A DNA stretch of 21,579 nucleotides, from the IMG/VR virus record IMGVR_UViG_3300032245_001714; one strand, written 5' to 3'. Source of the DNA: a virus (Duplodnaviria; Heunggongvirae; Uroviricota; Caudoviricetes). This document shows positions 1 through 18,327 of the stretch, piece after piece. The stretch's first letter is position 1. Each line of letters opens with the position of its first letter. The notes under the pieces are model-generated. The model was given only the letters and a program-made list of their open reading frames with translations, was not told where the DNA came from and searched no databases. Position numbers and translations under genes: made by a program.

Positions 1-62
1 TCTACGTCAGAGGTAGCTAAATTATTTAAGCTGAAATCAGTAAATTTTGATATTCTTTTCAT
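1..62 (-). CDS. 5' end of a gene running off the window (MKRISKFTDFSLNNLATSDV...), CTS-like N-terminus
   Basis: Not in the ORF track. ATG at 62-60, open to position 1, GATATATA box 16 nt upstream, and an N-terminus matching the tag of neighbouring genes. Confidence 0.7.
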   Translation of the reverse strand, partial: MKRISKFTDFSLNNLATSDV

Positions 63-77
63 GTTTTATCTTTTTTT

Positions 78-368
78 TTATATATCTCTTTGATTTTTGA
101 CCTTTCCTGAGTATTCTGAGAATTTAAGGATTCCCTTGTCTTCGCCAGATTCTGTGAGCTTTTGATTTGGCTGCATAACAGGAGCATTCTGGATCCATTT
201 TGAAATTCCTAATGTTCTAGCCGCTGCTCTTTCGTGATATGCCTTATGAGGGAATGCACCACAGCTAGGACATTCTTTTTCCGGGTCCTCGATTGATTTC
301 CCGCACCCCGAGCAGACGTCTTGTCTTCTCCTTTCCTCTATTTGGTCGTATGCTTTAATGTTTTCCAT
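78..368 (-). CDS. small zinc-ribbon protein with CTS-like N-terminus
   Basis: CSGC-x10-CPSC Cys pairs; starts MENIKAYDQIEE; 3-nt gap to the upstream gene. Confidence 0.7.
   Translation of the reverse strand: MENIKAYDQIEERRRQDVCSGCGKSIEDPEKECPSCGAFPHKAYHERAAARTLGISKWIQNAPVMQPNQKLTESGEDKGILKFSEYSGKVKNQRDI
79..86 (-). promoter_or_regulatory. putative phage late promoter GATATATA
   Basis: Recurrent RATATATA box, 16 nt upstream of the ATG at 62. Confidence 0.55.
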
Positions 369-371
369 ATG

Positions 372-1601
372 TTAAATAAATTGGAGTAGCTTAGCAGCCT
401 TAATCAATCTTCTTGATAGATCGTCAATATCTTCTTGTGAAGTTGAGAATTCCACCAGATCTTCCAATCTTGGATTTGCTGCTATTTTTCCTTTAAGATC
501 TGTTGATCCGTTTTTAAGTAGGTATTTAATTAAAAGCGCTTTAGCGTTTTTAACTATTTCTGGGTGTGATTGAAGATCTCTTTCTATAAAAACACTAGGT
601 TCAAGGCCTGCTGAAGCTTCAAAGAAATAATCTGCCAGAAGATCGTTAACCTCATTAACTAGAGGATCGTTTCCGTGCCAAATCATTTTTTGGCTTATAT
701 TTTTTCCCTTTGCTCTTCTGAATGTTCTTTTGATGATAGAGAAGAAAACTGCACTCATCATTTCGTTACTTTGAACGTGACATTTAAGGGTATTTTCTCC
801 AGTTCTGAAGTTTACAGAGTTTAGAGGTATCCTATTTGTGTTTGTAACTGTCCAGGTTTCGTAGTCGCTATATCTTGAATTTAAAGTTCCCACGCAAGAT
901 CTAAATAGTGATCCTCCTAAGATCTCTTCTACCAGACTTGCATAAACATTTCTTGTTGTTTCTGCAGCGGTTGAATAAAATCTATATTTAACTATGGCGT
1001 TCTTAGAGATGTCGGTTACAACTTTAATCTCTTTTCCCGAAGAATACTTTTCGATCTTACCAATCAGGGAGAGATCCAATAGTCTCTCAACTGTATCTGT
1101 TTCAACAAGGTCTTTGTTTGACGGATGAGCTAATTCGTCACCTCCGATGATGGGCTTTAGTCTATCTAGAAAAACCTCCTGAGAAACTTTTGATCCAATC
1201 GGAAACATAGTTTCTAGATCTATTCTTTTTTCTGCCTCTCTTTTACTGATAAGCGAAGCGGGAATAATGTTTTTAGCTAATCTCATCCAAAGATGTCTGA
1301 AAAGTTCTTCTATGGTGTCGAAAGATTTTTCTCCGTAAACCTCTTGGCCTTTATAATGTTCTATGTGAAATTTTCCACCATCTTTATATACAAAAGTTCT
1401 TGGCATAGATTGACCGTAAGCTCTTCTTTCAAATCTAACTTTTTCAAACTCTGGTACATCTCTAACGCCAAGAGCGTATAAATCTCTTCCTGCGTCTGTG
1501 TGTCCAAAAGCGTCTAGAACCTCTTTGGTTCTTTCTGTTGGAGTGCCATAGTACCTAGAACCTTCTAGGATGTGATTTTCGTATGATAAAACGTAACTCA
1601 T
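372..1601 (-). CDS. hypothetical protein, 409 aa, CTS-like N-terminus
   Basis: Long ORF in a co-directional run; starts MSYVLSYENHILEG; no family recognised. Confidence 0.8.
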   Translation of the reverse strand: MSYVLSYENHILEGSRYYGTPTERTKEVLDAFGHTDAGRDLYALGVRDVPEFEKVRFERRAYGQSMPRTFVYKDGGKFHIEHYKGQEVYGEKSFDTIEELFRHLWMRLAKNIIPASLISKREAEKRIDLETMFPIGSKVSQEVFLDRLKPIIGGDELAHPSNKDLVETDTVERLLDLSLIGKIEKYSSGKEIKVVTDISKNAIVKYRFYSTAAETTRNVYASLVEEILGGSLFRSCVGTLNSRYSDYETWTVTNTNRIPLNSVNFRTGENTLKCHVQSNEMMSAVFFSIIKRTFRRAKGKNISQKMIWHGNDPLVNEVNDLLADYFFEASAGLEPSVFIERDLQSHPEIVKNAKALLIKYLLKNGSTDLKGKIAANPRLEDLVEFSTSQEDIDDLSRRLIKAAKLLQFI

Positions 1602-1616
1602 CTTTATATTTACTTT

Positions 1617-3197
1617 TTATTTGAATTTGGATAAAATGTTATCTTTATTATCTAATGCCTTTTTCATGATCTCTATTTCTAAAGGTTTCAGATTGGTAAT
1701 TCTACTCTTCATGTGATACAGAATATATTCCATAGTTTCAAAAGCATCAATTGTTGATTGCTTTATTTTTTCCATGCTTTCTTCTGTGTAGTCGTTCTTT
1801 ACTATAGTGTCAAAAACTCTCCAGGTGTTTTCTGTTGATAGTCCGTTCTCCTCAAAGAATTTGACAAATTCTGATACCTTTAGATTCTCCTCGTCTTTTA
1901 CTAGTAGTGAAACTATACCGACTATTTTAGACCATTCCTCTTCTGAAAATTTTCCTTCTAGTATTCCTCTGTTGATGTTAACCAGAGAAGAAACTATTTT
2001 GTTTACTTCCATTTTAGATCCTTCTTTAAAGAAGATTTCTAGAGCTATCTTAATTGATTTCTCTCTTTCAAATTCTCTTAGCACTTTATCGATCACATTC
2101 GAAGGATAATCAAGACCTTTTAGAAATTTATCCAGCGAAATTCCAGTCTTCATTAATTTATTGAATGGTGTTGTTTTATTATTCTTGTCGAAGGCGTCTT
2201 TAACGTTTTGATCCTTATTAACAGTAAGTCCAATTAAACTGTTGACATTTACTGTTGAAAGATTCTTATTGATAAGTATTAGTTGAACGTTTCCTTCGTT
2301 ATATCTCCAGTACTGAGTTTCGCCCTTTACACACCAAGGGGTTGATGCACCTATAACATCAACTGCTTTAGAGTTCCTTGCCGAAACCACGATGTATCCG
2401 TCTTGGTTGCATAAAAATCCCACTTTAGCTCCTAGGCCTTTTATGGTTTCAACTATTTCATCCTCGTCGGTTTGCCAATCCTCTATCCATTTTTTAGAAT
2501 CATCGATTAGATAAGCAAAAGCAGCTTTTGGATTTCTGTACTCGTCATAATACCCATTAGGATACCCTGGGATTGGACTATTTTCATATTTCCCCAATGT
2601 CTCTTCGTAACTTCTCCAAGGTTTTTTTGTGACTTTATCACCCTTTTCGTCTACACCCTCCTTGTTTGGAAGTCGATCTATTTCGTTTGCTATTTCAGTT
2701 AGATCTTTAATTTGCTCCTCTGTTGCTCTTTCAAACTCCTCCTTCATTTTTGGGAGAAGTCCATTATAGAGCTTTCTGAGCTTTATCTTTCTAGGTATGA
2801 GATTAAGATCATCTTGTAGTTTTTCCCATCCTGGAGTTTTATCCTTCTTGGTCGGGATCATTGCTCCGTAATCTTCCAATTTCATCGGAAGGTCTTTGGC
2901 GATGTTTTGCTTAAATTCTTTTAGTAAATCATATATCTCTTGAAGATTCTCCAGTGAAGCTTTTTGATCATAGAGGAATTTAACAAAAAGAGGGGTGTAT
3001 CCGGGATCCTTTTGTACCATGTCCCTGATTTTGATAAAAGAAGGATCCTTTAAGATCTTTTCTTTTATTTCCGCCGGGATCTCAGAGGTCTTAATTTTTT
3101 TACTCTCCGCATATCTTTTCAGCAAATAGTCTTTTGCCATCTGAACGCTTTCAAATATCGGGGTTTTTTCAAAAAAAGTCTTAAATCCTGTTTGCAT
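1617..3197 (-). CDS. hypothetical protein, 526 aa, CTS-like N-terminus, central 'GxxTxWC' (PcfJ-like?) region
   Basis: Long ORF; starts MQTGFKTFFEKTPIFES; contains GASTPWCVKG...YWRY; family assignment tentative. Confidence 0.75.
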   Translation of the reverse strand: MQTGFKTFFEKTPIFESVQMAKDYLLKRYAESKKIKTSEIPAEIKEKILKDPSFIKIRDMVQKDPGYTPLFVKFLYDQKASLENLQEIYDLLKEFKQNIAKDLPMKLEDYGAMIPTKKDKTPGWEKLQDDLNLIPRKIKLRKLYNGLLPKMKEEFERATEEQIKDLTEIANEIDRLPNKEGVDEKGDKVTKKPWRSYEETLGKYENSPIPGYPNGYYDEYRNPKAAFAYLIDDSKKWIEDWQTDEDEIVETIKGLGAKVGFLCNQDGYIVVSARNSKAVDVIGASTPWCVKGETQYWRYNEGNVQLILINKNLSTVNVNSLIGLTVNKDQNVKDAFDKNNKTTPFNKLMKTGISLDKFLKGLDYPSNVIDKVLREFEREKSIKIALEIFFKEGSKMEVNKIVSSLVNINRGILEGKFSEEEWSKIVGIVSLLVKDEENLKVSEFVKFFEENGLSTENTWRVFDTIVKNDYTEESMEKIKQSTIDAFETMEYILYHMKSRITNLKPLEIEIMKKALDNKDNILSKFK

Positions 3198-3220
3198 GCT
3201 TTATCTTAGAATTATATCTG

Positions 3221-3230
3221 GATATATATT
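3221..3230. promoter_or_regulatory. overlapping divergent late-type promoter boxes (GATATATA on +, AATATATA on -)
   Basis: GATATATATT reads RATATATA on both strands, 21 nt before ATG 3250 (+) and 25 nt before ATG 3197 (-). Confidence 0.6.
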
Positions 3231-3249
3231 CAAACTAAAATATCTAATA

Positions 3250-3522
3250 ATGAGAGTTTTAACTAAACTAGATGAATTTATAGCATCTCAACCAAAAACA
3301 AGTCCAAATCAGCCGACAACAAAGCCGGCTCCATCTACGACTCCTGCTCCAACGACAACTCCTAATAGACCAAGCCCCATAAGAAGGGATAAACCTTCAA
3401 AAGAGGGACAGCCTAAGGCCAAAGCTGAGGATGTGGTAAAGAGGTTTATGAAGGAACTAAGAAACCAGAAGATGGATATAAACTTTGACATTCAAATATT
3501 AAAAGACAGATACGATGATTAA
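3250..3522 (+). CDS. small Pro/Thr-rich protein, 90 aa (start moved from 3196 to 3250)
   Basis: ATG 3250 follows the RATATATA box and avoids overlap with the divergent gene; starts MRVLTKLDEFIAS; PTTKPAPSTTPAPTTTP linker. Confidence 0.75.
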   Translation: MRVLTKLDEFIASQPKTSPNQPTTKPAPSTTPAPTTTPNRPSPIRRDKPSKEGQPKAKAEDVVKRFMKELRNQKMDINFDIQILKDRYDD

Positions 3523-4927
3523 GACATTTTTTGATAAAATCGACGAGGCTTCTCTAAAAGGGAATCCTGCCATCCCAGGGGAAGGCGGAAAAAGCGGAAA
3601 CTACCTAAAATCGGTTGAAGCTAGAGCAAAAGCAAGAAACAGAGAATTGGAATCCAGATATGGAAGGGATATCCCCATGTTTATGTCTCTTGTTAGTGAA
3701 GTTAGAGCGATTCAGAGCGGCCACGAGAAAGAATTGGCTACTGCTGCTAAGAAATTAATTCTATCCCTATACGGCAGTATTTTGGATGGAGTTGAATTGA
3801 ATATAAAATTTCCAGAGAGCAAGGAAATAGAAAAAATGATGAAGGATGTTCCCAAAGAAGAGCCCAAAGACGATGTTAATTTAAAGAAACTTGAAGACGA
3901 GGGCGTAATATCTGAAATCCAAAGAAGAAAGATAGGGAATAATATATCCCAGGGTGAAGCAAAAAATGTTAAAAAGGTTTTGGCTATGCCAGAAACCATA
4001 GAAGAATTTGCAAGAATATTTTCCAAAGGAAAAAGTGAGGCTGAAGGAAAGAGCTTGGCAAAGAAATACAAAGACCTTCTAATTAAAATCTCCGATATTG
4101 CCGGATTCTTTGACTGGATGATTCCCATGGAAGTTCAATTGGAGATGTGGACAAGGGATAAATCGGGATTCTCTGGATCTGTTAAGATTGAATGGGAAAG
4201 TTCAGAAGCTCAGGAAGAAGATGAGACAAAAAAGAACATTATGGATGGACTTTCTGAAAGTCCTGATCTTCCTGATGAAACTGAGGAATTATTCAACGAG
4301 ATTGGTCCAACTATAAACGCTATAGGTACAGATTTCTCTATGCTTATTCATGAAACTATTAAAGGCATATACGATCTAATCGTTGCAGCTTCTATACCTG
4401 AAGATGAGGAGTTAGCAGACACTGTTATTCTAAATACTGACACTTTAGCTGACGAATTAGAAGATCTTAGATACGGCCCAGAATTGGCGGCGGACCTAAG
4501 GGATTATCTCAACACTTTTAAAGAGTCAAGTGAGATTGAAAATTTTAGGGAGCACATTTTCGGTAAAATGATGAGAATTCAGGACCCTAAAGAATTCCTA
4601 GAGCTTTTCTTTAAGATCTTAGATCAAGACGATGATTCAAGAGACGTGATTAAAGAAATGGCCAGAGAAATCAAAGAGGAGATTTCAAAATACGATCTTA
4701 AAGCCTCGGGGATTGAAATGGAAGAGCCAGAGATGGAATTACCAGTAACTAAGGTGGTTGACTATAAACAAATGTCTCAAAAAGATATCCAAGCAGAAGT
4801 TGATAAAGCTCTAGATGCTGAAGATTACGAAAAAGTGAAAGAATTATCACAGTATCTGAAAGAATCAAGAAGATATAAAGTTTACGAAAAGCTAAATGCT
4901 TATCCTTATAACACAAGTGAAGATTAA
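3515..4927 (+). CDS. acidic hypothetical protein, 470 aa, CTS-like N-terminus, C-terminal UVR-like helical hairpin
   Basis: Start overlaps the end of the preceding gene by 8 nt; starts MIKTFFDKIDEA; ends with ...VDKALDAEDYEKVKELSQYL. Confidence 0.8.
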   Translation: MIKTFFDKIDEASLKGNPAIPGEGGKSGNYLKSVEARAKARNRELESRYGRDIPMFMSLVSEVRAIQSGHEKELATAAKKLILSLYGSILDGVELNIKFPESKEIEKMMKDVPKEEPKDDVNLKKLEDEGVISEIQRRKIGNNISQGEAKNVKKVLAMPETIEEFARIFSKGKSEAEGKSLAKKYKDLLIKISDIAGFFDWMIPMEVQLEMWTRDKSGFSGSVKIEWESSEAQEEDETKKNIMDGLSESPDLPDETEELFNEIGPTINAIGTDFSMLIHETIKGIYDLIVAASIPEDEELADTVILNTDTLADELEDLRYGPELAADLRDYLNTFKESSEIENFREHIFGKMMRIQDPKEFLELFFKILDQDDDSRDVIKEMAREIKEEISKYDLKASGIEMEEPEMELPVTKVVDYKQMSQKDIQAEVDKALDAEDYEKVKELSQYLKESRRYKVYEKLNAYPYNTSED

Positions 4928-4935
4928 ACAAATAT

Positions 4936-5205
4936 ATGAAAAAATCAATTAAATGTGAAGTTTTTCTCCACGAGAGAGATAGATTTATACTAAAGGAAGT
5001 CAAAGTTCTATCAGTTGAATATACCGATTCTTTAACTCCTGCTGATATCTCTTCTCAGCTTATTCCGGTCCTTGTAAACCCAGATAAAACTGATGTCATA
5101 AAAGAGGAAACTTGGGAACCAGGAAAAAAGATAGAGGTTTCTAGCGATCGGGACGTTAAGGATCAAATTATACTTGAATATTGTCTTTACCTGAGAGATA
5201 AGTAA
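4936..5205 (+). CDS. hypothetical protein, 89 aa
   Basis: 8 nt after the previous stop, same strand, A-rich leader. Confidence 0.65.
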   Translation: MKKSIKCEVFLHERDRFILKEVKVLSVEYTDSLTPADISSQLIPVLVNPDKTDVIKEETWEPGKKIEVSSDRDVKDQIILEYCLYLRDK

Positions 5206-5206
5206 A

Positions 5207-5872
5207 TTACGGCCTATAGGTCTTGAAGTGATCAGAAAATTTCTTGGATTCTATTTCGATCCCCTTAATGGATTGCATTCTTGGTATTATCCCAGTGGAA
5301 AGATAGGCTTGGATCTCATCGTTTACCACCTCTTTGCAATAACCCATTCCTAGAATTACCTTAGATAGCTGGGTGTATATGGGCTTTTTAATTCCCTTTA
5401 TCAGTTTGGTAACACCCGCTTTATATTTGGAATCAACATAGAAAAGACCGTGTGCCACCTCGTGGTCCATTGTTTTGCTGTTAAGCTTATCAACTCCTAT
5501 TAAATAGAACCTCGTATTGTTATTCTTCCCTTCCTTTACTTTGTCCAAAATGGATTTCATGATGTAGTCATAGGGTGTGGGAAAAAGTCCGTTACGAGCG
5601 TCTAAAACGTGTTTAGTGCACTTCTCGACAATATCTCCTGGAACGTTAAAACCGGCCCAATCTACGGGATAAGTAAACGATTCGGAATTGTGGTGCTTTC
5701 TGTATCTGTCCATGAACTCAAAGATGTCAAAATGCTTTCCCTTGATCTCTGGGAATGCTGACTCGTAGTGCTCCTGACATCTCAAAAAAAGCATCGCTCT
5801 CTGGTATGAGTCCTTAACTATGACAGCAAAAATTCCGGGATGTATTTCTTTTAAAGTGTAGTCTATCTCCAT
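5207..5872 (-). CDS. putative zinc metallopeptidase-like (HExxH) protein; start likely ATG 5872 rather than TTG 5890
   Basis: DHEVAHG motif; TAACTTTG box 20 nt upstream of ATG 5872. Confidence 0.6.
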   Translation of the reverse strand: MEIDYTLKEIHPGIFAVIVKDSYQRAMLFLRCQEHYESAFPEIKGKHFDIFEFMDRYRKHHNSESFTYPVDWAGFNVPGDIVEKCTKHVLDARNGLFPTPYDYIMKSILDKVKEGKNNNTRFYLIGVDKLNSKTMDHEVAHGLFYVDSKYKAGVTKLIKGIKKPIYTQLSKVILGMGYCKEVVNDEIQAYLSTGIIPRMQSIKGIEIESKKFSDHFKTYRP

Positions 5873-5892
5873 TTTATATCTTTTATACAAGA

Positions 5893-5900
5893 CAAAGTTA
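5893..5900 (-). promoter_or_regulatory. Bacteroidota primary-sigma -7 box (TAACTTTG)
   Basis: Exact TAnnTTTG, 20 nt upstream of ATG 5872; a T-run rather than TTTG at the -33 position. Confidence 0.55.
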
Positions 5901-5945
5901 ACCTCTAATCTCGGTTAAAAAAATAAAAGTCTGATTTTTTTTAAA

Positions 5946-5953
5946 GATATATA
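5946..5953 (+). promoter_or_regulatory. putative phage late promoter GATATATA
   Basis: 24 nt upstream of ATG 5978. Confidence 0.6.
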
Positions 5954-5977
5954 AAGAAACATCAAAATACGTATAAA

Positions 5978-7210
5978 ATGGGAATAATTAAAAGCTTTAA
6001 AGCATTTATAAATGAATCGATTATTAACGAAGCAGCTGGGGAAGATAATAAAAGTATCGTTTTTCTAAGCGGTAGGGCTAGTTCTACTAGACTAGGAGAA
6101 GACGTAGCTAAGCAGCTGGGAATTAAAAAGGATGTTATCTACACAGTGGAATTACCTTCTTTCGGTTCTTTGGCCTTTATAGCTAATAAAGAATCCGGAC
6201 CTGCTGGGAACTTCACCTTAGGTGCAGAGAAAAATAACAAAATCAAAATCACCGACACTGGTAAAAAAAGCGTGGGTAAAGATGTTCTTATTGTTAACGG
6301 CAAGGGAATTAAAGATGGCAAAGGAACAATACTTTTTGAGAAGGAGGAAGTATTAGGTAAATCTCTAACCATCACTGCTTCTAATAATGGATTTTTGGCA
6401 ATGGTTAGATTGGGATCTGCTATGCTACAGTGTGCAGCTAAATCTAAAGAGATGGTTAAGCCATCCGGACTTTCTTGGTTCAATGCAACCAACTCGTCTA
6501 TTGAACTTGGACTAGGTGGAAATCCTAAAGAAGAATCTTCTAGAGAAGGCTTATTCACATATGCAATCACAAACTCGTATACGCCAACGTATAATGTTAT
6601 AAAACATATGATTAGTATTTGTATTGCTAAGTCTGCTGCTCCTGCAAATCAACCAGATGAATTAACTTTCCTAGATTACAAGGATGATAGCTGGACGGCG
6701 GAATTATTAAAGAGAACAAAAGGGGTTACTGACAGAGAGGAGATTTATAAAATTGCTGGAAAATACCTTGATGACTCAATAAATATAGCAAGAACCATTA
6801 GAATTAAGACTAATGATCTTATTAACGATCAGGAAATTAAGGCTAGCGATTTATGGTTTGATTACGTTAGCAACATCAAAAAATACACATCAAAGAAAAG
6901 AGTAGGATCTGGTGAAAAAGCCAGAGAAATTGTTACTCTTACCCCCGAAGGTTCTACTGAAGCAATAAAGTTACATAACGGATTGGCAAAAAGATTAGCT
7001 CCATCGAAGTTACCTGCACCGTTTAAAGCTTCTGAAAATCTTCTAAAAACAGCTAAGGAAATAGTTACATATGCTTGCGAATTCCCTACTAAGGGTAATT
7101 ACAATGGTCCATTAGAAAATTGCCAGGTTAAACACACTTTCACATCTGGAGTATCCCCATATGGATCTGCTAAATCCGAAGAAACAAAATACAAAGAGGG
7201 TAAATTCTAA
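5978..7210 (+). CDS. hypothetical protein, 410 aa, strong CTS-like N-terminus
   Basis: Starts MGIIKSFKAFINESIINEA; own promoter box upstream and terminator downstream; no family recognised. Confidence 0.85.
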   Translation: MGIIKSFKAFINESIINEAAGEDNKSIVFLSGRASSTRLGEDVAKQLGIKKDVIYTVELPSFGSLAFIANKESGPAGNFTLGAEKNNKIKITDTGKKSVGKDVLIVNGKGIKDGKGTILFEKEEVLGKSLTITASNNGFLAMVRLGSAMLQCAAKSKEMVKPSGLSWFNATNSSIELGLGGNPKEESSREGLFTYAITNSYTPTYNVIKHMISICIAKSAAPANQPDELTFLDYKDDSWTAELLKRTKGVTDREEIYKIAGKYLDDSINIARTIRIKTNDLINDQEIKASDLWFDYVSNIKKYTSKKRVGSGEKAREIVTLTPEGSTEAIKLHNGLAKRLAPSKLPAPFKASENLLKTAKEIVTYACEFPTKGNYNGPLENCQVKHTFTSGVSPYGSAKSEETKYKEGKF

Positions 7211-7225
7211 TAAACAGTAATACAT

Positions 7226-7256
7226 AAAAAAAGCCAGATGAGAGTCTGGCTTTTTT
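7226..7256. terminator. bidirectional intrinsic terminator
   Basis: A7-GCCAGA-tgagag-TCTGGC-T6 between convergent genes. Confidence 0.85.
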
Positions 7257-7273
7257 GTTGGACTGTGAATTAT

Positions 7274-7738
7274 TTAGAATAAACCATTTTTAGGATCTCT
7301 TGCCTGTACCACGATCAGAACTGTATTTCCGTATTCCTTATAATATGTAAATGCAGCAAACGGATCTGATCCTTTATCAATGGAATTAGTGTTAACCCCC
7401 TCTCCAGATCCACTTATAGGTACAGATGTACCATAAACGAAGTCTCCCTCAAAAACATACACCTCCTTATCATAAGGAACCCCTTTACGTCTAAGAGATT
7501 TCTCGAGACGATTGAGATTTTCTGGAGTTTTATGCTGAAGTGAAACCCCTTGATTGTACCAGTTGATTTTACAAACTGTCATGGAATCATTAGGAGAAAA
7601 TCCCGAATTGGGATCCATTTCATAAAGACTCATCTTGGATGATTCCTTTAAATATTTAACAAATTGGGTCTTAATATCAGTTTGGGCATTTGCACCGATT
7701 GCCAAAAATAATGACAGGATTAAAGCTAATTTTTTCAT
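7274..7738 (-). CDS. secreted hypothetical protein with Sec signal peptide
   Basis: MKKLALILSLFLAIGANA|QTD: basic N-terminus, hydrophobic core, AxA site, Gln at +1. Confidence 0.8.
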   Translation of the reverse strand: MKKLALILSLFLAIGANAQTDIKTQFVKYLKESSKMSLYEMDPNSGFSPNDSMTVCKINWYNQGVSLQHKTPENLNRLEKSLRRKGVPYDKEVYVFEGDFVYGTSVPISGSGEGVNTNSIDKGSDPFAAFTYYKEYGNTVLIVVQARDPKNGLF

Positions 7739-7757
7739 ATCTTTTGTTTTTATGTCC

Positions 7758-7765
7758 CAAATATA
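7758..7765 (-). promoter_or_regulatory. Bacteroidota primary-sigma -7 box (TATATTTG)
   Basis: Exact TAnnTTTG, 19 nt upstream of ATG 7738. Confidence 0.55.
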
Positions 7766-7855
7766 GTTCAGACATTCGATATAAAAAAATTTCTGAGGAG
7801 TATTTTTAACCCCAACCCTAAATTGTTAGACATTCCCGAATTCTGGCTTATCTTG

Positions 7856-7863
7856 AATATATA
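7856..7863 (+). promoter_or_regulatory. putative phage late promoter AATATATA
   Basis: 20 nt upstream of the endolysin ATG 7884. Confidence 0.6.
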
Positions 7864-7883
7864 AAGCAAAAACCGATCAAATT

Positions 7884-8717
7884 ATGTTACTAAAGAAAGG
7901 GTCTAAAGGAGATGACGTAAAAAAACTCCAGGAAAAATTAGGATTAAGTGCTGACGGCAATTTTGGCCCAGGCACAGAGGAAGCGGTAAAAGCATTTCAA
8001 ACAAAAAGCGGATTGACCCCAGACGGTCTAGTCGGAGATGGCACTTGGTCTAAGTTATTCGGTGCAGCTCAGGTAGAAGCTCCGGTAGCAGCTCCGGTAG
8101 CTAGCATTCCGCCTTCTTCTTTCAAATTAGATAAGCTTAAAGGTCACGTTCCTGATGCTGTTATTGCTCAGATCCCTGACACAGCAGCTAAATTCAACAT
8201 CACTACACCTCTAAGACTAGCACATTTCCTAGCTCAGTGTGGTCACGAATCTGGAAACTTTAAAGCAGTTAGTGAGAACCTTAATTATTCAGCAGATGGT
8301 CTTAAAAAGATCTTCCCTAAATATTTCCCAGGTAATCTGAATGAATCTTATGCAAGACAACCTGAAAAAATCGCCGCAAGAGTTTATGGTGGTAGAATGG
8401 GTAACGGAGACGAAGCTTCAGGAGAAGGATACAGATTTAGAGGAAGAGGCTATATTCAATTAACAGGTAAAGAAAACTATAAAGCTTTTGACGCAACAGT
8501 TGAGGATGATATCTTAGCAAACCCGGATTTAGTTGCTACTAAATACCCTTTGATGTCAGCAGCTTTCTTCTTCAATAACAATAAACTCTGGTCAATTTGC
8601 GATCTGGGTGCTACTGAAGATGTAGTAAAAAAAGTTACATTGAGAGTAAATGGTGGTCAAATTGGAATTTTAGATCGAATTAAGCATTTCAACGAGTTTT
8701 ATGCTCTTTTAAAATAA
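7884..8717 (+). CDS. endolysin: N-terminal PG_binding_1 domain + glycoside hydrolase family 19
   Basis: LKKGSKGDDVKKLQEKL...DGNFGPGT...DGLVGDGTW (PG-binding); HFLAQCGHESG, ENLNYS, RGRGYIQLTGKENY, VNGG (GH19). Confidence 0.92.
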   Translation: MLLKKGSKGDDVKKLQEKLGLSADGNFGPGTEEAVKAFQTKSGLTPDGLVGDGTWSKLFGAAQVEAPVAAPVASIPPSSFKLDKLKGHVPDAVIAQIPDTAAKFNITTPLRLAHFLAQCGHESGNFKAVSENLNYSADGLKKIFPKYFPGNLNESYARQPEKIAARVYGGRMGNGDEASGEGYRFRGRGYIQLTGKENYKAFDATVEDDILANPDLVATKYPLMSAAFFFNNNKLWSICDLGATEDVVKKVTLRVNGGQIGILDRIKHFNEFYALLK

Positions 8718-8732
8718 TTAAAATACTATAGA

Positions 8733-8768
8733 AAAAAGAAAGCCCAGATTATTCTGGGCTTTCTTTTT
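8733..8768 (+). terminator. intrinsic terminator after the endolysin
   Basis: Perfect 16-bp inverted repeat AAAAAGAAAGCCCAGA-ttat-TCTGGGCTTTCTTTTT. Confidence 0.85.
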
Positions 8769-8845
8769 GATAATCATTAACACTATAGGTTTTGTAGATC
8801 GTTATAATCTAGGTTACTGTGTCTTTTTGTGGGATCCCCTCACGG

Positions 8846-8853
8846 GATATATA
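8846..8853 (+). promoter_or_regulatory. putative phage late promoter GATATATA
   Basis: 21 nt upstream of TTG 8875. Confidence 0.6.
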
Positions 8854-8874
8854 AATCAAAATAATTAATAAAGA

Positions 8875-9876
8875 TTGGCAACAGTTAGATCATTTGCATA
8901 CAACTCGGGAACTGGAGTAACAGGAACAACCCAGGTTGGGTTCATAGCAGCAGGAAACGCGTCTCAGAATTATGGGAGCGGACTTACCTGGTGGAATGGA
9001 CCAGATGAAGATTTAGGCTATGTTATCTGTCACACATCAGGAGCAAGGACTGCAGGTCAGGGAACGATAAACGTGCCTTCGCCTACTATCGGTTTTTGGA
9101 GATCTGCCGCAAAAACTGATAATAGTTTTCTTACCCTCTGTAACAATTTATTTGGACAAAATTTCGCTGACCCTTCAAGTGCTAAAACGTGGTTAAATAC
9201 AAATGGATATTGGACTTCTTACGTTACTACACCAGCAGTGACCCCAGTCCTGTATCTAGACGCCGGTAATCCCGCTAGCTATCCAGGATCAGGCACTACT
9301 TGGACCGACACGATCGGGGGAAAGGTGTTCTACTTTCCTGTCACGCCGGCTTACAGTTCAGCGGATGGAGGTAAATTGTACTTCGACGGTAGTAACATTG
9401 CTGAAGGTTCTCCAAGTTTATCTAGCTTAAGCAATTGGACAGTTGCAGTTTGGCACTACTCCGTTGGGAGTCTTAATACTCCAGTTATATGGGAATCTTA
9501 CGCCTCCTCTGCAAATGTAAACTATCTGTTAGGAAATATTTATAGCGGCTACGGATTCGTAGCTGGATTTAATAGTGGAGCAGTATGGAGAACTACTACT
9601 ACCAGTTATCAGTTAACTGCAAATGCTTGGTCTTACATAGTCGGAACGTATGACGGGGCCACACTGAAGTTGTACGTTAACAATGTATTAATTGATAGCG
9701 CTAATCAGACGGCAGCTAGCGTAAGCTCAGGCGGAAGTATACAGTTAATGGGAAACAGTGAAGCAGGAGAGTATCTGGAAGGGTATTTAGCGACGGTTGG
9801 GATATACAATACTGCATTAACCGCAGGTCAAATTTCGTCAATTTGGAATTCAACGAAATCTAGATTTGGTCTTTAA
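8875..9876 (+). CDS. LamG/concanavalin-A-like lectin domain protein, probable virion component
   Basis: LYLDAGNPASYPGSGTTWTD, WSYIVGTYDGATLKLYVNN and IYNTALTAGQI match LamG-like motifs; Gly/Ser/Thr-rich; TTG start. Confidence 0.8.
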   Translation: MATVRSFAYNSGTGVTGTTQVGFIAAGNASQNYGSGLTWWNGPDEDLGYVICHTSGARTAGQGTINVPSPTIGFWRSAAKTDNSFLTLCNNLFGQNFADPSSAKTWLNTNGYWTSYVTTPAVTPVLYLDAGNPASYPGSGTTWTDTIGGKVFYFPVTPAYSSADGGKLYFDGSNIAEGSPSLSSLSNWTVAVWHYSVGSLNTPVIWESYASSANVNYLLGNIYSGYGFVAGFNSGAVWRTTTTSYQLTANAWSYIVGTYDGATLKLYVNNVLIDSANQTAASVSSGGSIQLMGNSEAGEYLEGYLATVGIYNTALTAGQISSIWNSTKSRFGL

Positions 9877-10046
9877 TAAAAATTAATAGGACCAAAGTAG
9901 ATTGAGCCCTTTAATTCTTTGGTATATTAATACTTCTAAAGACCGGGTCGATCGATCATACAGCAAAAGATGCAGGAAAAAGATATCTAAAAGTAAAGAA
10001 AATCATAAAAACTGGTTCTAATCTTATAGATTAATTAGAAAAGAAA

Positions 10047-10054
10047 AATATATA
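10047..10054 (+). promoter_or_regulatory. putative phage late promoter AATATATA
   Basis: 25 nt upstream of ATG 10080. Confidence 0.55.
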
Positions 10055-10079
10055 AATCAAAAAATTTAAAAGAGAATAA

Positions 10080-10481
10080 ATGAAAACCCCCTTTGTACCT
10101 AACCATCTCCATTTGATTGTTAAAGGATATGTGAAAACCTCTCCAAAGAAAGAGGAGATTCTTAATGATTGGCTAAAAAGGCTAGTAGAAAAAGTTAGAA
10201 TGGTAGTGGTTGCAGGACCAACATCGGTTTATGTTAATGAACCAGGAAACGAGGGGATAACAGGAACAGTGACCCTTGCTACTTCTCACGCAGCTATTCA
10301 TGTCTGGGATAAAGAATCCCCTTCATTGTTTCAATTTGACATCTATTCTTGCAGCTGTTTTTCTGCAGAAGAAGTCCTAGAGCATCTTGACGAATTTGGT
10401 CTATCTTCTTGCGAGTACATCTACATAGATAGAAATAAAGACATGGTGGTTGTGGACCAGAAAAAAATTGCATACAGTTAA
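10080..10481 (+). CDS. speD: S-adenosylmethionine decarboxylase-like pyruvoyl proenzyme (SpeD family; substrate uncertain)
   Basis: HLHLIVKG, GITGTVTLAT|SHAAIHVWD and FDIYSC match class 1b AdoMetDC motifs; Thr instead of Glu before the cleavage Ser. Confidence 0.8.
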   Translation: MKTPFVPNHLHLIVKGYVKTSPKKEEILNDWLKRLVEKVRMVVVAGPTSVYVNEPGNEGITGTVTLATSHAAIHVWDKESPSLFQFDIYSCSCFSAEEVLEHLDEFGLSSCEYIYIDRNKDMVVVDQKKIAYS

Positions 10482-10491
10482 TTCCTGTCAT

Positions 10492-11043
10492 ATGAGATAT
10501 ATTAAACTATTCGAGAATTTCAATAAAGTTTATTATCACGGAAGTGCTAAGAAATTTGACACCTTCGATAGAGGCGTAAGCAACTATTCAGGCACAATAT
10601 ACTTTACAGAAAGTAAACCTTTTGCTATGCAGTTTGCTTCTGATAGAGGAACCGATAAAACCTACTTATACACGGTTGAGCTCTATAATAAAAAATCATT
10701 TGACCCTTTTAATAAATCGGAAAGAGATAAACTAATTCCTGTTCTTAAAGATCTGATACAGAAGAGATATGAAGATAAACAGACTGGTGCAAAATTCTAC
10801 TCTAAGTACATAGTTCTAAATGGTGAATCAATACAAGATCCAGATACTGACCAGTCAGTTCAATATCTCTTATGGAGAATAGAAAACGGATCTTGGAGAA
10901 TAATAGAAAGTCAACCTGTTATAGACTCAATTAGATCAATGGGATATGATTCTATAATAACAATAGAAAAGGGTCAAGAAAACGTAGCCGTTTTTGACCC
11001 TTCATTAATAAAGATTCTCGATATAGAAGAAATAGAAAATTAA
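10492..11043 (+). CDS. ADP-ribosyltransferase-like protein (ART-PolyVal-like) with CTS-like N-terminus; start moved from 10450 to 10492
   Basis: YYHGS...FDTF...IYFT...A..F...LYTVEL...GYDSI...VAVFDP..IK pattern; starts MRYIKLFENF; ATG 10 nt after the speD stop. Confidence 0.7.
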   Translation: MRYIKLFENFNKVYYHGSAKKFDTFDRGVSNYSGTIYFTESKPFAMQFASDRGTDKTYLYTVELYNKKSFDPFNKSERDKLIPVLKDLIQKRYEDKQTGAKFYSKYIVLNGESIQDPDTDQSVQYLLWRIENGSWRIIESQPVIDSIRSMGYDSIITIEKGQENVAVFDPSLIKILDIEEIEN

Positions 11044-11321
11044 CTTGCTAAAGCTTCGTTTATTTTAGCTACTATTTTATCTTTAGGTTGAACCCCCACT
11101 GATTTTTGAATAACCTCTCCATCCTTTAAAAACACGAGAACCGGTATACTCCTAATCTCGTATTTTGCCGTTAATTCCGGTTCGCTGTCAACGTTAATCT
11201 TTTTGATTTCAACGTTTGATCCTTCGACGTTATGCTCTGTCATCAGTGCTTCAATTGCTGGAATCATTGCTCTGCAGGGACCACACCAATCTGCATAAAA
11301 ATCTAATACTTGTACTTTCAT
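11040..11321 (-). CDS. trxA: thioredoxin
   Basis: DFYADWCGPC; YEIRSIP cis-Pro motif; 93 aa. Confidence 0.95.
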   Translation of the reverse strand: MKVQVLDFYADWCGPCRAMIPAIEALMTEHNVEGSNVEIKKINVDSEPELTAKYEIRSIPVLVFLKDGEVIQKSVGVQPKDKIVAKINEALAS

Positions 11322-11352
11322 TTTTACTCTATTTTTTGTTTAATTAAAAATT

Positions 11353-12804
11353 CTAATCTTTTCTAGCTAGAGCTTGTGCTTGCTCTAGATCTTCCACTCC
11401 AAACTTTTGAGCTTGTTGTAAATATCCATTTGTGAAAGTCTTAGGCCTTCTTAAAGCCATATTATTCCATCCGTTGTATTGTGTTGTGTATTTCCAAATC
11501 TGTTCTGTTGTGATCAGATTAGGGTTAACTTTTTTATCGTAAAAATATCCACCAACATTTCCACCTGTTCTATCTGCACCGTGAGCACAATGTATTAAAG
11601 TGTTTCCCTTAAGTAATATTTCATTAACTTTGTCTTGATCTTTAGTTGCGGAAAGCTTATAGAAATTTATCCCAAGATCTTTGGCGATCTGTCTTTCTCT
11701 TTCTATCGAAACTGATTCATATTTAGCTTTGTGCTTTCCGTCCTTTCCATCTCCATTAAGCCTAATTACATTTTTTATTCCATACTTAGAATAAACATTC
11801 TTCATAATGTCTTCTGGAAATTGTGCACTTCTGTAATTTGTTCCTGTCTTATCTGGTATAAGATGAAAGTTAAATTCTTCAGAGATTTTTGGATCGTTCT
11901 TTTCTGGAGATATTTCTTTACCTTCTAAAGGTAATATACCTCCTTCCAAATCTTCCTCTTCTGAGCCTGTCTCGGGTTTATCTGGTGTTATGTTAGAAGT
12001 CCCGCTTCTCTTTGGTGCGTTCTTGCTTCTAGCAGAAGGGTTCTCGCTGTCTAAGGTGTCAATCGAAGGCTGAAATTGGGGTTTAAAATCTGCACCTGTG
12101 ATTTCGTACCATCTGGGTTGGACATCCTTCTTAGCTAACCAGTGATCATTTTCAACCTTATATTTATAAGGATCACCAGGTCTAGCTATAATTCCAATCG
12201 CTGTAACTACACCTTCCGGGTTTACCCCGGGAGAGATCCTCATTCTTGTTGGACTTGTGTATCTCTCAGTCTGAATTGCTTGGTCTATTGCATTTCCTAT
12301 AGTTGCTAAAACCGGTCTATCGCTATGAGCCTCTCTGTCGGTTGCAGAGAATCCTACTGGAGGTTCTATGACAGTTACCCCTAGATTTGAAAAAAGACTA
12401 TAGTATCTCCTAACATTATCTTCGGTGACTCCCCTATTTCCTCCCCATCCCCAAGATCCCTGGATAACCGTAATTTTAGACTCCTGGAATTTTGTTTTTA
12501 TGGAAGAGATTAACCCTGTGATATCCTCTCTTGGATTAAATCCGCCATTGGTTCCTATAGAGATAATTACATTTTTAACTGCTGGACTTACCGGGTATAA
12601 TGAAACTGCGTTTTTTAACCATTTAACTCCCATTCCCTGTTTCCAAAGAGATGCTTCCCCTGGTGTATTTGAGACTAGACCTGCTCCTTTTACATGTTTT
12701 GATATTAGAGGACATAACGAATCTCCTATAATAATATTAGATCCTCCAATCGCACCTTCAAAAATTTGGGAAAAGTCAGAAAAATTATGAATCCGGTTTG
12801 TCAT
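11353..12804 (-). CDS. SGNH/GDSL-hydrolase + Cys-based (tyrosine/dual-specificity) phosphatase fusion, CTS-like N-terminus
   Basis: IIGDSL, ISIGTNG and DREAH (SGNH blocks); NYRSAQ, IKNVIRL and HCAHGADRTG (CX5R P-loop). Confidence 0.75.
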   Translation of the reverse strand: MTNRIHNFSDFSQIFEGAIGGSNIIIGDSLCPLISKHVKGAGLVSNTPGEASLWKQGMGVKWLKNAVSLYPVSPAVKNVIISIGTNGGFNPREDITGLISSIKTKFQESKITVIQGSWGWGGNRGVTEDNVRRYYSLFSNLGVTVIEPPVGFSATDREAHSDRPVLATIGNAIDQAIQTERYTSPTRMRISPGVNPEGVVTAIGIIARPGDPYKYKVENDHWLAKKDVQPRWYEITGADFKPQFQPSIDTLDSENPSARSKNAPKRSGTSNITPDKPETGSEEEDLEGGILPLEGKEISPEKNDPKISEEFNFHLIPDKTGTNYRSAQFPEDIMKNVYSKYGIKNVIRLNGDGKDGKHKAKYESVSIERERQIAKDLGINFYKLSATKDQDKVNEILLKGNTLIHCAHGADRTGGNVGGYFYDKKVNPNLITTEQIWKYTTQYNGWNNMALRRPKTFTNGYLQQAQKFGVEDLEQAQALARKD

Positions 12805-12809
12805 GATAT

Positions 12810-12817
12810 TATATATC
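12810..12817 (-). promoter_or_regulatory. putative phage late promoter GATATATA
   Basis: Only 5 nt upstream of ATG 12804. Confidence 0.5.
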
Positions 12818-12833
12818 TATAAGAAGATTACTC

Positions 12834-13532
12834 CTATTGCCAATATCCATGATGGTTTCTGAAAAATTCAGGATTGTTTCTGTTGAAATAAGATCTGATC
12901 ATAATAGAGAACATCCAGAGAACCCCCTTGTTTCTAAACCTCCTAGCCGATGTCCATACTCTCATTCCACTCATGACTGTAAATCTTTTAGGTGAAACTT
13001 TCTTGGAAAGAGCATAGTCTTCTGCAAAAAGATCCATGGGATCATAACCTCCACACTTCCAGTATATGTCGGTTTTCCAGAGTTGAAATCCACCTATAGC
13101 AAATGGGGTTCCTAGCATCTTACTTATAGATTGAAAAAAATCAAATCCCCTATAAACCCAGTTCCACCCTTTATCAGTTTTCATTCTAAGTGTTAGAAGA
13201 TCAAAATCCGAGTTGATAACTTTCTCCAGAGTTCTTTGATCTGTTAACATTACATCCGAATCGAGAAATAGAACGTATGGGGTTTTTACAAGCTTTGATC
13301 CTTTTAGCCGGGCTTCTGCTGGGTAACCCCCTGGTATGAAATTTAGCTTAATTTTAAAAAAATCTTTCTTTGCTTTTTTTATCCACTCTAAAGATTCGTC
13401 ATCATCCGAACAGTCCGCTACAATAACGTTAGTTCCTCGTACTGAATTTTGGGATTCTATGTGAGATAAGCACTCGTAGAGAATTTCTCTCTCATTCTTT
13501 GAAGGTATGACTATCGTTAAACTATCCTTCAT
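12834..13532 (-). CDS. glycosyltransferase family 2
   Basis: IVIPSKNE, IVADCSDD, LFLDSD (DxD), GGYD...AEDYAL, TSARRF. Confidence 0.88.
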   Translation of the reverse strand: MKDSLTIVIPSKNEREILYECLSHIESQNSVRGTNVIVADCSDDDESLEWIKKAKKDFFKIKLNFIPGGYPAEARLKGSKLVKTPYVLFLDSDVMLTDQRTLEKVINSDFDLLTLRMKTDKGWNWVYRGFDFFQSISKMLGTPFAIGGFQLWKTDIYWKCGGYDPMDLFAEDYALSKKVSPKRFTVMSGMRVWTSARRFRNKGVLWMFSIMIRSYFNRNNPEFFRNHHGYWQ

Positions 13533-14217
13533 ATTTGTGAATAGTGAATTCCCCCTTTTCGTATATCACATAACTATTGTTCTCTATCCAATCCCCGGTG
13601 TTTAAATATCTGATCCCGTCTATATCTCTGTCTTCTGGGTGATGTATATGACCACAAATTACTGTGTGACAATGATGTTTCTTTGCTTGTCTAGTCAATT
13701 CGATCTCAAACTGAGTAATGAACTTAACAGCTTCCTTTACTTTTTGTTTTAAGAACTTAGATAATGATCTTTTCATTCCCAATTTTTTTAGTTTTCTATC
13801 AATTGAGATTGCCAGATCGTAACCAACTGATCCTAAAACACCTAACCATTTCAATTTAACAACACCATCATAAAGATCCCCGTGTGTAATGAATGTGTTT
13901 TTCCAGACATACTCGTTATGAACCTCTATGTTACCAAATGAGAATTCTCCATACTCTCTAAGAAACTCGTCATGGTTCCCTGGGATGTATATTACCCTTG
14001 TTCCATTCTTAGAATACGATAAAATTTTTCTGATTACATTGGTGTGGGATTGTGGCCAGCGAAATTTTCTCTTTAACAGCCAGCCATCTATAATATCGCC
14101 AACGAGAAAAAGAACCTCAGGGTCATATTTCTTGAATAATAACAGAAGTTCTTCTGCATTACTCCCTTTACTTCCTAAATGGACATCGCTAACAAATAAG
14201 GCCTCTATCTTTTGCAT
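13522..14217 (-). CDS. calcineurin-like metallophosphoesterase, LpxH/UDP-2,3-diacylglucosamine hydrolase-like family
   Basis: SDVHLG, GDIIDGW, GNHD, HGD, GHIH and NTGDW motifs; 11-nt overlap with the GT2 start. Confidence 0.85.
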   Translation of the reverse strand: MQKIEALFVSDVHLGSKGSNAEELLLLFKKYDPEVLFLVGDIIDGWLLKRKFRWPQSHTNVIRKILSYSKNGTRVIYIPGNHDEFLREYGEFSFGNIEVHNEYVWKNTFITHGDLYDGVVKLKWLGVLGSVGYDLAISIDRKLKKLGMKRSLSKFLKQKVKEAVKFITQFEIELTRQAKKHHCHTVICGHIHHPEDRDIDGIRYLNTGDWIENNSYVIYEKGEFTIHKYEG

Positions 14218-14234
14218 TTTGTTCTGGTATTTCC

Positions 14235-14242
14235 TATTTATC
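14235..14242 (-). promoter_or_regulatory. variant late-type box GATAAATA
   Basis: One mismatch to RATATATA, 17 nt upstream of ATG 14217; resembles the T4 late TATAAATA. Confidence 0.4.
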
Positions 14243-14314
14243 CTGGATCCGTGGCCCAGGGGGAGATGTTCTACGTTAAGAAATTATTCGCATTATTTTA
14301 TAGCTGTAAAACGC

Positions 14315-14875
14315 TTAAATTAAGTTGGAAATTATCCTCTCCTTTATGCCTGATTGCTTGATCCCCTCATTACTTCTGGGGGTAAGGATAAAATTGTCCA
14401 ATCCAGGATGGAGGAATTCATTAGACATGTTGAGATCATCTACTGCAACCCAAGATTCAACCGCATTTTCCTCTAGCCATTTTTTAATCTCTAGACATCT
14501 TGCTCTTTCAAGCCAGCCTTTCCATGAGAAAATCCACGATGTTTCTTCATCGAATTCAGCCAGGCTAGGTGTAAATGCGATAGGAGGCTTGATGATACCC
14601 TGTTTTTTGTAAAATTCTGATAACTCCTCAAGAGTTGCGTGCATTTTCCAATCGGAAGAAACAACAATTTCAGCTCCAGTGGTTTCCAATATTTCATTTA
14701 GCACCTCAACAGCCTTGGTGTCAAAATTATCGAGACGAACATGCACATCCACCGTTTTCGCATTAAGATCCCAATCGGGATTTTTCATCTTGTACTTTTT
14801 CATCTTCTTGTGTCTACTTCCCCAATTGTTGGAGAGACAAATAACACCATCATGATCTAAAAAAATAACTTTCAT
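14315..14875 (-). CDS. HAD-superfamily phosphatase (Swiss-Army-Knife RNA-repair-like HAD)
   Basis: IFLDHDGV (DxD), IVVSSDWK, EIKKWL, WVAVDDL. Confidence 0.8.
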   Translation of the reverse strand: MKVIFLDHDGVICLSNNWGSRHKKMKKYKMKNPDWDLNAKTVDVHVRLDNFDTKAVEVLNEILETTGAEIVVSSDWKMHATLEELSEFYKKQGIIKPPIAFTPSLAEFDEETSWIFSWKGWLERARCLEIKKWLEENAVESWVAVDDLNMSNEFLHPGLDNFILTPRSNEGIKQSGIKERIISNLI

Positions 14876-17709: not shown

Positions 17710-18327
17710 TTAGCTTAAATGGTCACTCATATTTTTTGCAGATTGTATGGCATCTTCCCAATTCTCAATAGTCCTTGCTCCTCTTAATCTATATGGGATG
17801 TAACGAGCAACGCCATCATTTCTGATGTCATCTGCCCACCATGTATCTCCATCGGCTTCAGCCTGGGCGATCCCATCATTATACTCTTTTACCCAACCAG
17901 CCCATTGTTCTGGAGTGTAGTCTTTTTCCTGAGGCTCGTAATTACCGTCGAAAATTTTATCCCCGATTTTGAAAGTACAACCACCTCGATGAGTATAGCC
18001 ATAGTATCCAACAATTCCTGTAAGATCGTCATTCATTAGAATAGCAACACCATGAGGATAAGGTTCATATACTTTTAGCTTGTTCTTCTCATACCATTCA
18101 GCTCTTTTAAAATCTCCAATGTACTCACCTCCTTTACTAACAAATGAATTTTCTAGAACCCCATGGTAGATAATGTCTTCCCCATGAGATGGTTTTTCAT
18201 TTGATTTAAAATTACCACCTACACCTTTAACATCCCACCATTCATAGGTTTCAATTAAACCCCCTGTTGATTTTTCGATAACTGCTATCCTCTCGAAGGA
18301 TGGTCCATCATTTGTTTTTATTTCCAT
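17710..18327 (-). CDS. hypothetical protein, 205 aa
   Basis: Long ORF, 4 nt from the next gene. Confidence 0.8.
   Translation of the reverse strand: MEIKTNDGPSFERIAVIEKSTGGLIETYEWWDVKGVGGNFKSNEKPSHGEDIIYHGVLENSFVSKGGEYIGDFKRAEWYEKNKLKVYEPYPHGVAILMNDDLTGIVGYYGYTHRGGCTFKIGDKIFDGNYEPQEKDYTPEQWAGWVKEYNDGIAQAEADGDTWWADDIRNDGVARYIPYRLRGARTIENWEDAIQSAKNMSDHLS

Follow-up and report, generated by a model that had tools for sequence, protein, structure and literature searches.

Background

The internal proteins IPI, IPII and IPIII of bacteriophage T4 carry a capsid-targeting sequence (CTS) (Mullaney and Black 1996; reviewed in PMC3012670 and PMC5694885). When fused to foreign proteins, this peptide causes their stable encapsidation (PMC3012670). 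Searches of the open-access literature gave no description of such a tag outside T4. Here we analyse 21,579 nucleotides of DNA from a tailed phage of the Caudoviricetes (IMG/VR record IMGVR_UViG_3300032245_001714; 21.6 kb, 36% GC), hereafter called the window, in which nine genes (t1 to t9, Table 1) start with a similar short peptide, hereafter called the tag. Like the T4 CTS, which reads MKTYQEFIAE in IPII and IPIII and MKTFKEF in IPI, the tag lies at the extreme N-terminus, is 10-19 residues long and follows the pattern K-x-[Y/F]-x-x-F-[I/L/V]-x-E, then A or S. In both cases it is borne by otherwise unrelated proteins and has a gp21-type site, here a predicted one, at its end. However T4 carries it on three small proteins, while at least nine genes in 12.8 kb carry it here, and about 43-58 of 371 in a complete relative (G001, see below). 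The carriers here include large enzymes, the protease of G001 is fused to a repeat scaffold, the host belongs to the Bacteroidota and the role of the tag is a prediction from sequence. We think it reasonably likely that the tag is a portable T4-type capsid-targeting propeptide which would be removed by the prohead protease. By analogy with T4, the tagged proteins are probably packed into the particle and injected into the host.

T4 Alt is a head-packaged, gp21-processed ADP-ribosyltransferase (ART) which is delivered with the DNA. The t8 product is also a phage ART with a short putative N-terminal propeptide, the tag being joined directly to the catalytic domain. However it belongs to the ART-PolyVal family and not to that of Alt, and the N-terminus of Alt (MELITELFDE) scores only -1.3 bits with the tag matrix described below. 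In phiKZ-like phages and SPN3US, many head-internal proteins are processed after Glu by a gp21-related protease (PMC5694885, PMC10052503). Dozens of protein species are packaged and ejected in these phages, which is the likeness to the reading proposed here, but their propeptides are mostly longer than 100 residues and share no short motif, and they belong to another jumbo group. A similar idea, the delivery of many effector domains together with the DNA, applies to the polyvalent proteins found in phages and in conjugative elements (Iyer et al. 2017, cited in PMC7824862), whose modules include the ART-PolyVal domain of t8. However their domains are strung into one giant injected protein, whereas the tagged proteins are encoded by separate genes, each with its own tag.

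Origin of the window and reference genome

Proteins identical to those of the window are encoded on ENA metagenome scaffolds, which reach 132 kb in length. An exact DNA search in a collection of viral contigs gave no match. A relative, the IMG/VR contig G001 (289,651 bp, CheckV completeness 100%), shares a syntenic block with the window at amino-acid identities of 36-62%. This synteny covers the orthologues of window genes 78-4927, the pair formed by the gene at 11353-12804 and the thioredoxin gene, and the HAD gene of the window. The capsid protein of G001 has its kin among Lak megaphages, LR7565xx huge phages, Sphingomonas phage PAU and Tenacibaculum jumbo phages, a kinship which matches "group 2.2", the T4-related group defined by Iyer et al. 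2021 (PMC7824862). A very similar clade is that of freshwater Bacteroidota phages with genomes of 293-331 kb (PMC9723584). The window is best explained as a section of the genome of an uncultured jumbo phage which infects freshwater Bacteroidota and is T4-related in its head genes. G001 was assembled from 16 overlapping pieces (371 open reading frames (ORFs) called, 349 families) and was used as an independent training genome to avoid circularity.

A common N-terminal tag on unrelated proteins

An earlier note on this DNA had listed nine genes with a common N-terminal tag, each attached to an unrelated protein and absent from metabolic genes. All nine ORFs and N-termini are present at the coordinates given in Table 1, and each tag begins at residue 1. 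The two starts which had been moved inward in that note agree with independent gene calls, 3250 with a called 90-aa gene and 10492 with the 183-aa P0122/P0123. The shared peptide has the consensus M-[K/E]-x-[I/L]-[K/R]-x-[F/Y]-x-x-F-[I/L/V]-x-E, followed by A, S or G. A family-weighted position-specific scoring matrix (PSSM) trained on G001 alone gave a similar consensus (M-[K/E]-[H/N]-[I/L]-[K/R]-x-[F/Y]-E-x-F-[V/L]-N-E-A). When applied to the window, it placed eight of the nine tagged proteins as the top eight among 32, and seven of the 32 reached at least 5 bits where about 0.2 were expected. The weak scorers of the set are t5 and t4. The N-terminus of the latter (MQTGFKTFFEK) is a divergent variant which its G001 orthologue retains, while a G001 paralogue carries the canonical tag MERIKLFEAF. 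The common tag of the earlier note is confirmed, with t4 as a divergent variant. The other two statements stand: past residue 20 the nine proteins have no mutual BLASTP match at E < 0.03, and the thyA, trxA, GT2 and epimerase genes, all confirmed by Pfam, score from -3 to -17 bits. All window genes from 12834 onward score 0 or less.

The tag also occurs in G001, where the enrichment at N-termini over internal and shuffled sequence that the earlier note had proposed to test was observed with three different scans. A strict regular expression derived from the window matched 31 of the 371 N-termini (27 families), compared to 4.8 +/- 2.0 shuffled N-termini and 1.06% of internal Met sites. Of 42 occurrences of the core motif in the proteome, 20 begin within the first 8 residues (1.4 expected). 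With the PSSM, 43 of 371 proteins (35 families) scored at least 9 bits against none of about 1,500 internal Met sites, and 58 proteins scored at least 5 bits (2.3 expected). These scans, together with the BLASTP comparison, effectively refute chance resemblance or hidden paralogy among the nine proteins. The tags are short, t4 and t5 have low scores and no aromatic pair is present in the orthologues of t2 and t3 from G001, all of which would agree with such an explanation, but the unrelated bodies, the excess of high scores in the window and the 35 families of G001 make it extremely improbable.

Where identical tag residues occur in different families of G001, the same codon is used in 48.4% of cases, compared to 47.0% expected from genome-wide usage. 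Since synonymous codons vary freely, the tag is under selection at the protein level. A signal at the mRNA level was rejected by this test. These comparisons show that the tag is genuine and that its effect lies in the protein.

Occurrence of the tag in T4 and in other large phages

The G001-trained matrix retrieves the T4 internal proteins. In a scan of T4 (NC_000866, 121 ORFs in 80 kb), IPII, IPIII and IPI scored 18.9, 17.4 and 8.7 bits respectively and were the top real T4 genes, the sole intruder being a spurious ORF spanning the tRNA cluster. The start MKTYQEFIAE of IPII and IPIII, which the earlier note had given, was confirmed in the same sequence. Alt, gp67, gp68 and gp24 gave no match.

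A tag expansion was also found in LR756500 (462 kb, of which the first 381 kb were scanned), where 33 of 486 ORFs scored at least 9 bits with the consensus MKYIKEYEEF[I/L/V]NE[A/S]. At the same threshold there were no matches among the 297 ORFs of PTm1, the 186 of MaF61 and the 532 of RaK2, and one match each in Lak-B1 (code 15; 423 ORFs) and immuto (216 ORFs). PTm1, MaF61, RaK2 and Lak-B1 are AT-rich T4-related large phages with an S77 protease or a related capsid, and show no matches above chance. Since these AT-rich relatives do not have the tags and LR756500 does, the expansion is a lineage trait and not a by-product of base composition.

The putative cleavage site

As the earlier note had pointed out, all eight complete tagged ORFs of the window carry [IL]-x-E within about 18 residues, compared to 16% of untagged N-termini (18 residues, P ~5e-7). 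Among 51 tag family representatives of G001, 32 have a hydrophobic-x-E with the Glu 4-14 residues past the first aromatic (controls 23%), and 16 of the 51 have the exact T4 geometry. In 21 of these 32 families, the Glu is followed by S, A, G or T at P1'. These features suggest that the tags end in a gp21-type cleavage site.

The t3 family provides the strongest evidence for this site. It has 85 metagenomic homologues with 65 distinct N-termini, of which 42 score at least 5 bits. A hydrophobic-x-E lies directly before the conserved body in all 65, while the aromatic pair drifts, and E14 of t3 is conserved at 90% or more in the family. One homologue starts with MNKVAKYSDFIAE then AW, which is almost the T4 tag. 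In an AF2 model of t3 (mean pLDDT 86, pTM 0.76), residues 1-15 form a detached low-confidence helix. The model has no significant fold match in the PDB or in AFDB clusters, and its fold may be new.

Head machinery and scaffold repeats in the relatives

The reading of the earlier note called for homologues of T4 gp21 and gp23, and these are present in the relatives G001 and LR756500. A candidate for the window's own protease (P0045) led to contigs of other samples. G001 carries a Pfam S77 (T4 gp21) match within a 676-aa protein (L011:5277-7307, that is G001 43277-45307), encoded directly upstream of a gp23-like capsid gene, together with a second gp23-like gene and a T4-type portal. LR756500 likewise has an S77-type protease, a scaffold core and a gp23-type capsid. 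The 676-aa protein is a protease-scaffold fusion with more than 5,500 metagenomic homologues, and its PTm1 version is annotated "prohead core scaffolding protein and protease". Residues 293-487 are composed of fourteen tandem 14-residue repeats, x-I-x-Y-S-E-Y-L-A-E-N-L-D-x, with L-A-E in each, and these repeats are conserved in 34 aligned homologues. Hydrophobic-x-E occurs 5.5 times per 100 residues in the fusion protein, compared to 2.3 in the G001 proteome. The T4 gp22 scaffold is chopped up by the prohead protease, and the features of the fusion protein fit a scaffold that would likewise be chopped up by a protease of T4-like specificity. The G001 capsid protein also has L-N-E followed by S near residue 45-52, which is conserved in a relative, and PTm1 has I-N-E at the aligned position. 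The genes just downstream of the G001 capsid gene are tagged.

The tag bears some likeness to the scaffold repeats themselves. With a matrix for the tag core (positions -1 to +7), six repeats scored at least 8 bits where 0.3 were expected, and these six are among only 41 internal matches at this level in the G001 proteome. Degenerate repeats of this type also occur in the tag-bearing LR756500, whereas PTm1, which has no tags, has a different repeat. In the reverse direction, a matrix built from the 14 near-identical repeats retrieved no tagged N-terminus at 4 bits or more and gave a weak median shift (p 2e-4). The idea that the tag imitates one scaffold unit is a lead and not a result, since it comes from the forward test alone. 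It is possible, though doubtful, that a clade of huge phages, from freshwater and elsewhere, has turned the three-protein CTS of T4 into a general loader for about 15% of the proteome (40-60 proteins). The tag would then mimic the 14-residue Y-x-x-Y-L-A-E repeat, and the cargo would co-assemble with the scaffold and be freed by the same cut. Such cargo would include ADP-ribosyltransferases, wall hydrolases, phosphatases, kinases and DNA ligase.

The tag might also be a handle for the prohead protease without lasting packaging, its bearers being either transient core parts, degraded and expelled, or pro-proteins activated by cutting. This would account for the hydrophobic-x-E site behind the tag, for the same site with similar aromatic spacing in the scaffold repeats and for the core-like appearance of several tagged genes adjoining the capsid gene. 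However folded enzymes (ART, wall hydrolases, kinases) are unlikely scaffold filler, a detached N-terminal helix of 10-13 residues is unlikely to hold an enzyme inactive, and in T4 the same peptide leads to the stable encapsidation already mentioned. We consider a mere protease handle quite unlikely.

Promoter boxes and probable timing of expression

The earlier note had also proposed to test for the tag behind RATATATA boxes. The window contains ten such boxes, all intergenic (3.5 +/- 2.0 expected), five of them directly upstream of tagged genes (Table 1) and a sixth at the head of the AdoMet-decarboxylase/ART operon. In G001, 27 of 60 tagged genes have a box of this class at most 45 nt ahead of them, compared to 34 of 311 untagged genes (odds ratio 6.7, p 5e-9). 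The same class precedes the protease-capsid operon and the sheath-like and neck-like genes of G001, and because the box is common to tagged and head genes, the former appear to belong to the structural (late) class.

Boxes lie 4-7 nt from many start codons. The shared N-terminus could be viewed not as an address but as a side effect of the constraints on translation starts in late mRNAs, possibly leaderless ones, of an AT-rich genome, or as a nascent-peptide effect. The genomes of related freshwater Bacteroidota phages include a gene for ribosomal protein bS21, and this protein has been proposed to give preference to late transcripts of the phage (PMC9723584). Against this, synonymous sites are not conserved in the codon comparison described above, and the conserved positions are aromatic or hydrophobic residues with helical spacing and a Glu. 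Moreover, boxed sheath, neck, protease and endolysin genes are untagged, and the AT-rich PTm1, RaK2 and Lak-B1 do not have such N-termini. A translation-start origin of the tag is very unlikely.

Nature of the putative cargo

The tagged set of G001 includes wall-acting domains (CHAP, SLT and OmpA-type) but also an adenylate kinase, a RimK-type ATP-grasp enzyme, P-loop kinases and a DNA ligase. For a set that includes adenylate kinase, DNA ligase and an ATP-grasp enzyme, the "arsenal" of the earlier note is too narrow a term. Compared to T4, the tag is borne here by a much larger and more diverse group of proteins. A GH19 endolysin-like gene of the window (7884-8717) is untagged, which fits a use of the tag on early-acting wall enzymes only.

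The cytoplasmic type of the adenylate kinase, DNA ligase and ATP-grasp enzyme, and the tagging of about 15% of G001 genes, would agree with a different role for the tag, as an address or docking peptide for other late machinery and not for the capsid interior. This could be a chaperone or AAA+ unfoldase (MoxR, ClpX/ClpP-type or BCS1-like) or a replication or assembly factory. For this jumbo group, Iyer et al. 2021 (PMC7824862) speculate that the loading of head proteins is assisted by AAA+ translocases. However such an address leaves unexplained the match with the T4 internal-protein tags, the conserved hydrophobic-x-E boundary and the resemblance to the scaffold repeats, and appears rather unlikely. 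A phage nucleus of known type is itself unlikely, as G001 has no tubulin/PhuZ homologue, and import into a phage nucleus was rejected for this reason.

The tag as a proposed capsid-targeting propeptide

The sequence-level parts of the reading in the earlier note, namely N-terminal enrichment, portability, the match with the T4 tags and the hydrophobic-x-E site, withstood the tests that could have refuted them. If the tag is a capsid-targeting propeptide, its short amphipathic helix would recruit the new protein, expressed late, into the prohead scaffolding core. The S77 prohead protease, as part of the repeat-scaffold fusion, would then cut after the hydrophobic-x-Glu at the end of the tag. 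The mature protein would remain in the head and enter the host with the DNA.

Several observations weigh against this scheme. Core binding, cleavage, packaging and injection are all proposed by analogy with T4, and the evidence for protease and capsid comes from relatives (~36-62% identity) and not from the window's own genome. Even in T4, motif and packaging do not correspond one to one, since the packaged Alt, gp67 and gp68 are not matched. About one in seven G001 proteins is tagged, which is a very large set, and adenylate kinase, DNA ligase and the ATP-grasp enzyme would be unusual cargo. About one third of the G001 tags have no hydrophobic-x-E after the second aromatic, and t5 has a Ser at the position of the T4 cleavage Glu. 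The missing aromatic pair in the G001 orthologues of t2 and t3 also counts here, and makes the tag of t2 less certain. Finally, every cultured or named relative examined (PTm1, RaK2, MaF61, immuto and Lak-B1) is devoid of the tag expansion.

If the proposal is correct, the tag would mark the injected proteins of uncultured huge phages in a way that can be read from sequence, and a genome alone would predict which of its proteins enter the host first. It would directly point to candidates for early effectors and anti-defence proteins, the majority of them without a known fold. It would also imply that the head-loading signal of T4 is conserved over a very large evolutionary distance, between enterobacterial and Bacteroidota phages, and can be scaled from three cargo proteins to dozens. 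Those who engineer phages in new hosts would have a natural toolbox of packaging tags.

The tagged genes of the window

Table 1. Tagged genes of the window and associated RATATATA boxes (positions in the window; PSSM scores in bits)
Feature	Position	Strand	Description	Tag	PSSM score	Box
t1	1..62	-	5' end of 210-aa protein	MKRISKFTDF	10.0	GATATATA, 79-86 (-)
t2	78..368	-	96 aa, zinc-ribbon-like; weak Zn_Ribbon match	MENIKAYDQIEE	10.7	
t3	372..1601	-	409 aa, no known fold match	MSYVLSYENHILE then GS	7.2	
t4	1617..3197	-	526 aa	variant, MQTGFKTFFEKTPIFE then S	-4.5	3223-3230 (-)
Two overlapping divergent RATATATA boxes	3221..3230	both	52-nt gap between t4 and t5			
t5	3250..3522	+	90 aa, basic, Pro/Thr-rich	MRVLTKLDEFIAS	1.3	3221-3228 (+)
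t6	3515..4927	+	470 aa, acidic	MIKTFFDKIDE then A	5.4	
t7	5978..7210	+	410-aa orphan; best tag of the window	MGIIKSFKAFINE then S	15.9	5946-5953
t8	10492..11043	+	183-aa stand-alone ADP-ribosyltransferase (ART-PolyVal)	MRYIKLFENF	8.8	
t9	11353..12804	-	483 aa; GDS(L)-type N-domain, CX5R phosphatase-like C-domain	MTNRIHNFSDFSQIFE then G	5.6	12810-12817, 5 nt ahead of ATG

Among the nine, a clear family could be assigned only to t8, and for seven of them neither Pfam nor PHROGs returned a match. The full-length t1 gene is found on an ENA contig (L001:10306-10938, 210 aa). A viral-contig locus search with t3 returned no relatives. Distant homologues of t4 occur in huge phages of 630-640 kb. In the gap between t4 and t5, the overlap of the two boxes results in a compact element that resembles a bidirectional promoter. 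The G001 orthologue of t5 starts with MAIITKMNEFLAT. The tag of t6 has the exact hydrophobic(+4)/Glu(+6) geometry, and its G001 orthologue (49% identity) starts with MIKSFHDRLNE then A. The t7 tag also has the exact T4 geometry; no relatives of this protein were found in Pfam, PHROGs, an Atlas search, a PDB sequence search or a viral-contig locus search.

The t8 protein matches Pfam PF18760 with 48.4 bits (gathering cut-off 31.2, E 2.2e-12) and has 207 homologues at E <= 0.001. In nearly all of the 150 listed matches, the alignment begins at query residue 10-14, after the tag, and many of these listed matches are internal domains within proteins of 1,000-3,800 aa of the polyvalent type. Homologues of this ART exist with and without a tag, and a few short ones bear their own version of it. 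The t8 gene is the second of a box-driven operon (10080-11043, + strand) headed by a gene for AdoMet_dc (S-adenosylmethionine decarboxylase).

The t9 protein contains a GDS motif and an HCxxGxxR phosphatase signature, for which the Pfam support is a weak Y_phosphatase3 match only. A PDB sequence search with t9 gave nothing. Its G001 orthologue (57% identity) starts with MENIISFSTFSSINE then S.

Neighbouring genes

Beyond t9 in window coordinates, an untagged run of genes on the minus strand (12834-14875) encodes a GT2 glycosyltransferase, a calcineurin-like metallophosphatase and a HAD_SAK_2 protein, HAD_SAK_2 being the HAD domain of "Swiss Army Knife" RNA-repair proteins. Another untagged gene (17710-18327, minus strand) encodes a 205-aa protein with a match above cut-off to Pfam Tad6, a Type I Thoeris inhibitor (5.2e-12), and is a candidate anti-defence gene. 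The thymidylate synthase gene (19847-21094, minus strand) encodes 415 aa, of which residues 7-331 match Pfam over 232 model positions. As the span of the match exceeds the model positions, this enzyme has a sizeable insertion, together with a C-terminal extension. The next ORF (21102-21578, minus strand), which is cut by the end of the window, contains NUMOD3, a motif characteristic of homing endonucleases.

Two strain variants differ just past the start of the window. One of them (L002:11628-13357) carries two extra genes which are not present in the other (L001). One of these two genes shows Gly_transf_sug and faint TcdA_TcdB-type glycosyltransferase matches, and both adjoin a small sigma-70-like gene.

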